From NCBI RefSeq assembly GCF_003018115.1, contig NZ_CP027457.1: a DNA stretch of 64,000 nucleotides; one strand, written 5' to 3'. Numbering within the stretch: the stretch's first letter is position 1; each line of letters begins with the position of its first letter. Positions 3,001 to 6,000 of this stretch are shown here, in pieces. The DNA is from Escherichia coli. Its GTDB lineage: Bacteria > Pseudomonadota > Gammaproteobacteria > Enterobacterales > Enterobacteriaceae. The position numbers are program-made.

Positions 3001-6000
3001 ATGAGGATTACCTGAAATGGCTGGACCAGTGTCTGGCGCAGTTCTGGCGGGTGCTGAAACCTGCCGGAAGTCTTTACCTGTTCTGTGGCCATCGCCTGGC
3101 ATCTGACATTGAAATCATGATGCGTGAACGCTTCAGTGTGCTGAACCATATTATCTGGGCGAAGCCGTCCGGACGCTGGAACGGGTGCAACAAGGAAAGC
3201 CTGAGGGCGTATTTCCCCGCCACAGAGCGCATTCTGTTCGCGGAACATTATCAGGGGCCGTATCGTCCGAAAGATGCCGGGTATGAGGCGAAGGGCAGGG
3301 CACAGAAACAGCATGTGATGGCACCGCTGATTGCTTACTTTCGTGATGCGCGTGCTGCCCTGGGGATAACGGCAAAACAGATTGCTGATGCCACAGGAAA
3401 GAAAAACATGGTGTCGCACTGGTTCAGTGCCAGTCAGTGGCAGCTACCGAACGAAAGCGATTATCTGAAATTACAGGCGCTGTTTGCCCGGGTGGCAGAA
3501 GAGAAGCATCAGCGCGGTGAACTGGAAAAGCCCCACCACCAGCTGCTGGAGACGTATACTTCACTGAACCGGCAGTATGCGGAACTGCAGAGTGAATATA
3601 AGCATCTGCGGCGGTATTTTGGCGTGACGGCGCAGGTGCCGTACACGGATGTGTGGACGCATAAACCGGTGCAGTACTATCCCGGGAAACATCCGTGCGA
3701 AAAACCGGCAGAAATGCTGCAGCAGATAATCAGCGCGAGCAGTCGTCCGGGGGACCTGGTTGCAGATTTTTTCATGGGGTCGGGTTCGACAGTCAAAGCC
3801 GCGATGGCGCTGGGGCGTCGTGCAACTGGCGTTGAGCTGGAGACTGAACGTTTTGAGCAGACGGTCAGGGAAGTTCAGGATTTAGTCAGTCAGAACGGAT
3901 GATATTGCAGGATTAGTTACGTACCGTTATTATCCTGCGCCGGCCCTTTAGCTCAGTGGTGAGAGCGAGCGACTCATAATCGCCAGGTCGCTGGTTCAAA
4001 TCCAGCAAGGGCCACCATATCACATACCGCCATTAGCTCATCGGGATAGAGCGCCAGCCTTCGAAGCTGGCTGCGCGGGGTTCGAGTCCTCGATGGCGGT
4101 CCATTATCTGCATTATGCGTTGTTGGTTCTGATGAGTGAATCATTGTCTTTTGAGCAACAGGCTATCATATAAGATAGCCTCAGACTTCCTTGTTTATTC
4201 TCGCCGGATGCTTCGTAGATATTTGCAGGCATCTGTATGCAGGGGTATTATTGCGGCATATATCATCCGGAAAAATAAAAACCACATGCTGATCCGGAGA
4301 TGATAGTTACAAGTCCTCCCGGATCCCGCATATTTACTATATTTTATAGATAATTGTTCTTGTTAATATGGAGATGGATAAATGTATTGCCGTGCTGTAC
4401 CGGTTCTTGTTTTGATATTAGCTAGTCTGACAACTGGCTGCACAAAAGATGTATCGACAAATAATTATGATGCTTCTCTGTATCACTCAGATAAATTAAT
4501 AAAGTCGCAAAATTTGAGCTCATCGGAACGTACCCCTGATGCCAGTGAAGAAATCCGGCAGTATGCCATTCAGGTCAGGAAAGCCATAGAAGAACAGTTA
4601 AAGGATGCGAGTAAGTATTCAGGAAAAGAGTGTTCACTGAGAATGTATATGGCCCCGAATGGTCTTCTGCTACAGGTTAAAAGAGAAAGCGGTGATCCCG
4701 ATTTATGTCGTGAAGCGATGAATGCAGTAAAGAATGCTGATATACCATCACCACCGTCTTCAGGAGTATATAAAGTATTTAGAAATGGCGTGCTGGATTT
4801 TAAACTCTGACAGGGGGAGAAGATTTTCTCCTGTCCTGATGATTTTGGGGCGCTGGAAAGATATTGTGCTGTGAAGTGTTAAATCCCTCACAATTCAGTA
4901 AGTTGACAGTTGCCTGTCAGACTGAGCATTTGTTAAAAAAATTTCGCATGGTGAATCCCCCTGTGCGGAGGGGCGACTGGTGAACGGTATGATCTCTTTG
5001 ATGATCGTAAGCGAGAATACGCGGGTTTGGTGTCACCGGGCTGAACTCACCGGGAGGCACCCGGCACCATGCTCATGGTGATACAGAAATGCGGCTTCAG
5101 CCCCTCTCCGGAGGGGCTTTCTTATGGACAAAAAAAGCCCGCGCTGGGAGACGCGGGCGGCAAGGAATAAACAATAAAACGTGAAGTAATACTTCAACTG
5201 GCGAATAATACCCGACAGTAATCACTCTGCGCAATAGCGTGGCCTTTTTCGAATTGCGGGCTGTAGTCTCCCTTCTGCCGGGTGTCCTGGTTGCAGATTT
5301 CTTCATGGGGTAGGGTTCGGCAGTTAAAGCAGCGATGGCGCTGGGGCGTCGTGCAACTGGCGTTGAGCTGGATACCGGGCGTTTTGAACAGACTGCGCAG
5401 GAAATCAGGGATGTATTTAGCGGGAGCGGTTTGCAGAAGTAATCTCCCAAAATGCCATTTTTGGAATATACTGGTATTAAGTCTTTTTGCTCAGGTTAAT
5501 TCAAAATGGATGTTGCCTGCTCTGTGGTCCTGATTCGCTATCCGATAGATATTTTTCTTGAAAAAGAAAAAGTTTCACTCGATGCCGGAAGTGTTATGCT
5601 TGTTGCCAGAAATATAAGAGGGCTTTTCTGTGCTTATGCCGACAGAGTGAAAATGGCAGATATAAGTAACAGCGTCGTCAATCAGTATCTGGAAAGGGTG
5701 TGTGAACTGACGGAGTATACACCGACAAAAATGCCTCTTTATTTGATGTCTGATATTTACAATACGGAACTGGCGGAGGCTTTAATAACCCAGCATAGTG
5801 AATCCAGTGATACTTTGAAGGATTTCTCTGTTATAACCGCATTTTCATGTATCTCCTTATTTGCAACAGACAGGCGTCTGCCATTATTTTTGTCCGGTGC
5901 TGTAAATAATATCAGCTGTAAAGTAAGGGCTATAATTCAGACTGACATATCGGCAGGCTGGATGCTAGGTGTGATTGCATTACAATTGCATATGAGCGAA

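Follow-up and report, generated by a model that had tools for sequence, protein, structure and literature searches.

The window analysed here is a 64,000-nucleotide stretch of Escherichia coli DNA (contig NZ_CP027457.1). At its left end lies the late regulatory region of a lambdoid prophage that has integrated at ompW, beside the trp operon. In order, this region carries Q, two small open reading frames (ORFs), a methylase gene (copy A), two tRNAs, a TolA-like gene, an STnc100 small RNA (sRNA), a methylase remnant (copy B), an AraC-type gene, a 92-amino-acid ORF, four more copies of STnc100, an esterase gene of the nanS-p type, and the lysis genes (Table 1). The annotated reference for this locus, E. 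coli isolate 07-4299 (L001), is 99.98% identical to window positions 1 to 11560.

Table 1. Features of the prophage late region, in window coordinates
Feature	Position	Strand	Evidence or remark
Q	684-1355		Gene order
Methylase copy A, full-length (PF01555)	2844-3902	+	Pfam E 4e-44; RefSeq WP_136807759.1 in L001
3' end of copy A, repeated at 5278	3747-3902	+	A-type C-terminus ending ...ETERFEQTVREVQDLVSQNG
tRNA, anticodon CAT	3942-4017	+	ARAGORN: Met; RefSeq: tRNA-Ile
tRNA-Arg (TCG)	4027-4103	+	ARAGORN, RefSeq
TolA-like cassette	4125-4887	+	Gene 4382-4810; Pfam PF06519, E 7.7e-23
STnc100 sRNA, copy 1	4917-5129	+	Rfam RF02076, 172 bits
Truncated spacer, left side of the joint	5130-5279	+	In other phages runs ~70 bp further, to the nanS-p start codon
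Novel joint	5278-5280	.	Compared base by base with the left parent type (L002/L006) and the right parent type (L004)
Methylase remnant, copy B	5278-5442	+	Pseudogene: 54 codons and TAA, TAG in frame at 5311-5313, N-terminal 301 codons absent
41-bp block	5332-5372	+	Longest identical run between copies A and B (3801-3841 in copy A); boundary of A-type and B-type gene ends
AraC-regulator cassette	5468-6753	+	1286 bp; boundaries from indels between lineages
Four tandem STnc100 copies	6889-7868	+	Rfam
NanS-p-type sialate O-acetylesterase (DUF1737-SASA-DUF6645)	8096-10060	+	Closes the cargo slot

Copy A contains the sequence DLIVTDPPY near its N-terminus. Its reading frame begins with ACG (2844-2846), where four related loci have ATG in the alignment, and the RefSeq model is a shorter, 346-amino-acid product starting at position 2862, an ATA codon. 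Judged from these start codons, the "intact" copy A may be poorly translated. Of the two tRNAs that follow, the one with the CAT anticodon corresponds, by the Ile annotation in RefSeq, to the ileZ-type tRNA of Stx phages. The third Stx-phage tRNA (argO) is missing from the window, where homology ends 7 nt into the gene. The TolA-like cassette occupies the exact place that this third tRNA and stx2AB hold in Stx2a phages. Its protein has 142 amino acids, with a lipoprotein-like signal at the N-terminus and only the C-terminal domain of TolA; one might speculate that it serves as a decoy for colicins or phages that depend on Tol. Just beyond the lysis genes (13024-13365) is another small lipoprotein-like ORF, named "TonB family protein" in RefSeq, so the same prophage has two minigenes with TolA/TonB C-terminal domains.

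The AraC-type gene (5506-6231) encodes a 241-amino-acid protein that resembles YdeO and GadX, its Pfam HTH_18 and NCBIfam YdeO/GadX matches falling below the cut-offs. The 92-amino-acid ORF in the same cassette (6321-6599) has no family match. The cassette, whose ends are almost without repeat, is present in some lineages and absent from others that carry an identical joint. Five STnc100 copies in all lie inside 3 kb, and the last four form a tandem array immediately before the nanS-p-type esterase gene; a 2026 preprint connects esterase genes with the STnc100 and PasD sRNAs.

By translation and Pfam, copy B is the final 165 bp (54 codons and a stop) of a PF01555 DNA methyltransferase gene. 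Read in frame, it gives PGVLVADFFMG, a stop, and then GSAVKAAMALGRRATGVELDTGRFEQTAQEIRDVFSGSGLQK and the terminal stop, the counterpart in copy A being PGDLVADFFMGSGSTVKAAMALGRRATGVELETERFEQTVREVQDLVSQNG followed by a stop. The Pfam match is confined to profile positions 182 to 219 of 221 and scores 30.5 bits against a cut-off of 26.7. That score, together with 98% DNA identity to the full-length gene of E. coli strain SMBL (L004), places copy B in the family as a homologous sequence, a pseudogene fragment. The features of a functional enzyme are absent from it: there is no N-terminal catalytic region with a DPPY motif, spacer rather than methylase lies upstream of 5278, and the AdoMet-binding FxGxG motif is broken (DFFMG, stop, GS) by a TAG where functional alleles have TCG. 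RefSeq/PGAP marks the same feature as a pseudogene with the note [quoted passage not shown] (for example, C6W75_RS13055 in NZ_CP027462.1) and is silent on the joint, the parent architectures, and the allele.

A repeat search of the window paired 3747-3898 with 5278-5429 as direct repeats of 152 nt, 82% identical and spaced 1531 bp apart, and BLAST aligned 3747-3862 with 5278-5393 (116 bp, 89.7% identity, E 2e-39). In an ungapped register, 104 of these 116 bases match, and only 18 of the following 34 do. Because the runner-up ungapped match of the 116-mer on either strand of the 64-kb window reaches only 54 of 116, the similarity of the two copies is far beyond chance. The first-pass annotation had described here about 160 bp that repeat the end of the methylase with scattered substitutions and an in-frame stop and that lack the upstream part of the gene. 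The repeat is indeed present at about that place, as are the stop and the truncation, and the pairwise alignment suggested as a check argues against short chance similarity. The last ~50 bases of the copies are unalike, though, and the limits shift slightly: the fragment spans 5278-5442 instead of 5281-5441, and the match in copy A starts at 3747 instead of 3759.

The identical 41-bp run within the repeat is shared by four of the five other aligned methylase 3' ends or remnants, the full-length allele of L005 differing within it. From position 5373 on, copy B encodes a different C-terminus, DTGRFEQTAQEIRDVFSGSGLQK, which is three codons longer than that of copy A, and its final 70 bp are base-for-base identical to the gene for the full-length 355-amino-acid SMBL methylase and unlike copy A. 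Since its C-terminal allele is that of SMBL, copy B is evidently not a copy of the end of the resident methylase A, and the earlier description of a duplicated end of one and the same gene could not be maintained.

Next to the joint on its right, the window follows SMBL closely, with 98.1% identity over 5278-7207 and 93% over 7375-10110. In SMBL, the same AraC-type gene begins 63 bp past the end of the gene for a full-length 355-amino-acid methylase, and nanS-p comes further on; there are no tRNAs and there is no TolA-like gene. Neither SMBL nor at least 24 other contigs have a first STnc100 copy between the methylase and the AraC-type gene. These are relatives without 3903-5280, of the kind with which a comparison had been proposed, and in them the AraC-type gene directly follows a full-length methylase. 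All 24 contigs that were read, out of 69 index blocks, have the identical 355-amino-acid protein and the same right-hand neighbours, and in all of them the methylase stands behind a different, 120-amino-acid Q and two antisense genes. Although just one of the 5426 complete E. coli genomes has an intact methylase-B with the AraC gene, the identity of protein and neighbours across 24 contigs indicates that this right-parent architecture is an established lineage. We considered whether the SMBL methylase is itself a recent product of recombination between copies A and B and rejected this, because the Q gene of SMBL-type loci is a different one and two additional antisense genes lie upstream of the methylase there; the reading is also weakened in that SMBL is merely consensus-like upstream of the 41-bp block.

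On the left, window positions 2362-5289 are contiguous in strain G6/7 (L006), which has no remnant. In G6/7 and its relatives, the methylase, two tRNAs, the TolA-like gene, and STnc100 are followed directly by nanS-p, and the order TolA-STnc100-nanS-p is contiguous in about 35 of the 5426 complete genomes. The match to G6/7 is good up to 5148 and only loosely alignable over 5149-5289, for which reason the left block is itself mosaic. We rejected G6/7 as the exact left parent on the same ground, the spacer of an Stx2a phage (L002) being the better match there. The final 37 bp of the spacer before the joint are identical to L002 and end in ...CTTCTGCC. Past the breakpoint, both L002 and L006 continue with ATTGTCCTGTAACTTCC... 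for about 70 bp to the ATG of the esterase gene.

At the breakpoint itself, the left parent type reads ...CTTCTGCC followed by ATTGTCCTG, the right parent type reads ...GTCGTCC followed by GGGTGACCTGGTTGCAG, and the window reads ...CTTCTGCC followed by GGGTGTCCTGGTTGCAG. The parents share only the dinucleotide CC (5278-5279), with a loose resemblance of 9 in 12 bases up to 5289, and the joint is thus illegitimate and not homologous. It links spacer whose usual place is about 70 bp ahead of nanS-p to codon 302 of the second methylase allele. Each flank is contiguous with different sequence elsewhere, the left one in L006 and L002 and the right one in L004 and L007 to L013. With a 111-bp probe across the joint (coverage of at least 80%, identity of 95 to 100%), we found the same joint in 87 of the 5426 complete E. 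coli genomes; identity is at least 99% in 77 of them and 95 to 99% in the other 10. The joint is also identical at base level in SCU-106 (L003), LZSFT34 (L005), and the draft contig L015, and its carriers span several serotypes and include draft contigs. Because one joint recurs in 87 genomes of several serotypes, the feature is real and, most simply, would have arisen once.

No such break appears at 3902/3903. In Stx2a phages and in prophages with the TolA-like gene, the tRNAs come straight after methylase A as the native order. This position is therefore not a junction, and there is one novel joint only. The first-pass annotation had proposed a mosaic junction, with 3903-5280 inserted by homologous or illegitimate exchange between related phages. 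Exchange between related lambdoid prophages is borne out by flanks that have other partners elsewhere. Of the two modes, the illegitimate one applies at the joint and the homologous one does not, and the view of 3903-5280 as an inserted segment conflicts with the presence of a single novel joint at 5278-5280.

Taken together, these comparisons are best explained by an illegitimate join of two related lambdoid, Stx-phage-like prophages that left the methylase fragment as a scar, a reading to which we give a probability of roughly 85%. One parent would have carried methylase-A, the two tRNAs, the TolA-like gene, STnc100, the spacer, and nanS-p, and the other methylase-B, the AraC-type regulator, the STnc100 array, and nanS-p. 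In the first, the break would have fallen some 70 bp ahead of nanS-p, and in the second at codon 302 of methylase-B, with 2 bp of microhomology where they were joined. The product has both cargo modules in tandem between Q and nanS-p, where Stx phages have stx. The overall structure amounts to two versions of one cargo module in tandem, and each version opens with the 3' end of a methylase gene and closes with STnc100 and the spacer that precedes nanS-p. An inserted block and a stacking of two alternative cargo modules would fit this structure equally, and either phage could have been the recipient.

Direct repeats 1531 bp apart whose first part agrees at 104 of 116 positions are also what a tandem duplication in place would leave, had the 3' end of the resident methylase been copied and then diverged. 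The two copies are not, however, most closely related to each other from end to end: the final 70 bp of copy B belong to the other allele, which exists full-length elsewhere, and just past the well-matched part the ungapped agreement with copy A falls to the 18 of 34 given above. Its downstream flank is contiguous with the flank of that allele in SMBL and at least 24 contigs, and its upstream flank is the truncated pre-nanS-p spacer and not methylase, all of which makes such a duplication highly unlikely. Bracketing by direct repeats could also reflect a mobile cassette of tRNAs, TolA-like gene, and sRNA that entered the methylase by transposition or site-specific integration and duplicated its target, and IS elements do land in this region (IS200C in SCU-106 is an example). 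Yet the repeat exceeds 110 bp, is imperfect, and combines two different alleles, where a short exact duplication would be expected; methylase-A followed by tRNAs is native in many phages; and we found neither terminal inverted repeats flanking 3903-5280 nor a transposase or integrase ORF within it, the only ORF there with a family match being the TolA-like gene. We regard this origin as extremely unlikely. That similar prophage sequences can yield false chimeras in assembly is a warning given in reviews (PMC8065619), and we considered whether the joint is such a chimera of two similar prophages; its identity in 87 independently finished genomes of several serotypes, and in draft contigs, makes an artefact practically negligible.

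A different question is whether the fragment was retained for a function, either in cis, as promoter or 5' leader of the AraC-type gene, or as a peptide of 35 (5335-5442) or 67 amino acids. The same 228 bp do precede the AraC-type gene both in phages with an intact methylase and in the window, and one draft genome has an open 67-amino-acid frame across the joint. Against this, a consensus scan of 5278-5505, a weak test, found no sigma-70-like site; the lineage of L005 and L003 keeps the fragment without the AraC cassette; the 35-amino-acid ORF has no family match; and the remnant has a nonsense codon and private changes that are mostly nonsynonymous. We therefore consider a retained function very unlikely. 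Because the 301 N-terminal codons are gone, motif I is interrupted, no sigma-70-like site was seen, and the fragment persists in a lineage that has no AraC-type gene, copy B would instead be a dead scar, the tail of a second, allelic methylase gene, from which no function is expected.

The substitutions in the remnant are unevenly placed. Between the window and SMBL there are six differences in the remnant, all at 5285-5331 and including the TAG, and none in 5332-5698; six in 54 bp compare with eight in 1696 bp (Fisher p = 1.6e-6). LZSFT34 and SCU-106 form a second joint-bearing lineage, without the AraC cassette (window 5468-6753). Of the six window changes, the LZSFT34 remnant shares five; a further eight, mostly nonsynonymous, are scattered over the rest of it. 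If the five shared changes were evenly spread, all of them would lie within the first 54 of the 165 bp with a probability of 0.004. In SCU-106, an IS200C copy lies between an STnc100 copy and the methylase remnant (L003:4249-4707). The draft contig L015 (GCA_000647455.1, AQGP01000109.1; 1386-1589) has the same joint and the AraC gene with no TAG in the remnant. Its remnant is functional-like and partly A-type over 5285-5393, and a 67-amino-acid ORF runs from the spacer across the joint into the methylase frame. Searches returned no live full-length methylase with the private substitutions of the remnant: in DNA, the top match to the first 116 bp of the remnant was 92%, and the best protein match was 96%, only short partial proteins being returned.

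This pattern suggests that the remnant later took part in homologous exchange, and it could have served as an anchor because it still shares the conserved 41-bp block with live methylase genes. After the join, the remnant would have decayed, acquiring the TAG and other substitutions. In the window lineage, a crossover, for which the 41-bp block is the likely site, would then have replaced everything to its right from a methylase-B/AraC phage. Separately, a patch of the L015 remnant would have turned A-type in an event resembling gene conversion. Since no live allele carries the private changes, the 5' cluster of substitutions could alternatively stem from a donor allele not yet sampled, or from mutagenic repair where the break occurred. 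Gain of the AraC cassette by the window lineage and its loss by the L005 lineage would both be compatible with these sequences.

A broader proposal, which we put forward tentatively and are inclined to doubt, is that the remnant works as a homology "landing pad," the 41-bp block allowing swaps of cargo in the stx slot, conversion as in the L015 patch, and excision. The AraC cassette may have arrived by this route. If the proposal is true, recombination between copies A and B would delete the 1531-bp tRNA/TolA/sRNA module and restore an intact chimeric methylase, and gene remnants would actively raise cargo turnover in the virulence region of Shiga toxin-producing E. coli (STEC) prophages.

The locus gives a clean, base-resolved example of how the stx slot gains cargo, with two alternative modules stacked by one illegitimate join, and it suggests that a leftover gene end can keep recombining. 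It may also help typing and assembly of STEC prophages, in which the 116-bp repeat and the repeated STnc100 are error-prone places. Beyond such bookkeeping its meaning is small, and it holds no new biology. Our literature search found nothing on this specific remnant and returned general statements on morons, mosaicism, and STnc100/Pas sRNAs near the esterase gene; mosaic Stx phages and their morons are covered in one such source (PMC8065619).

The feature is a textbook case of lambdoid mosaicism, set in the late region of an Stx-like prophage, which is rich in morons; RefSeq already flags the remnant as a pseudogene. Under the model of Hendrix and Juhala, illegitimate recombination makes novel joints between lambdoid phages, and homologous recombination then reshuffles the modules. 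In the window, as in that model, the similarity partner switches abruptly at a single point, each flank continues unbroken in other phages, there is hardly any homology at the joint, a gene fragment has stayed behind, and later exchange would run through conserved sequence. Nothing differs in kind, except that the joint here lies inside a gene instead of at a gene boundary, which would be tolerated because an intact methylase copy lies upstream. In homology-facilitated illegitimate recombination, one end is anchored by homology and the other is joined at microhomology. The single illegitimate joint with 2 bp of microhomology agrees with this; by mechanistic analogy, the other crossover would have to fall in shared sequence, either the methylase on the left or STnc100/nanS-p on the right.

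The closest known arrangement is the late cargo ("moron") slot of Stx phages, in which Q, a methylase, the ileZ-argN-argO tRNAs, stx, and nanS-p follow one another, and the flanking genes and their order are the same in the window. Window positions 2362-4124 are 96.8% identical to the Stx2a phage Stx2_12E129_PPompW. This homology, followed in the Stx2a phage L002, stops at window position 4124, 7 nt into the third tRNA of the phage, and resumes downstream of stx2B at 91% identity (window 4888-5289). The window differs from this slot in having no stx, with a lipoprotein carrying a TolA C-terminal domain where argO and stx2AB sit, and in having a second cargo module, made up of the remnant, the AraC regulator, and four STnc100 copies, stacked behind the first.
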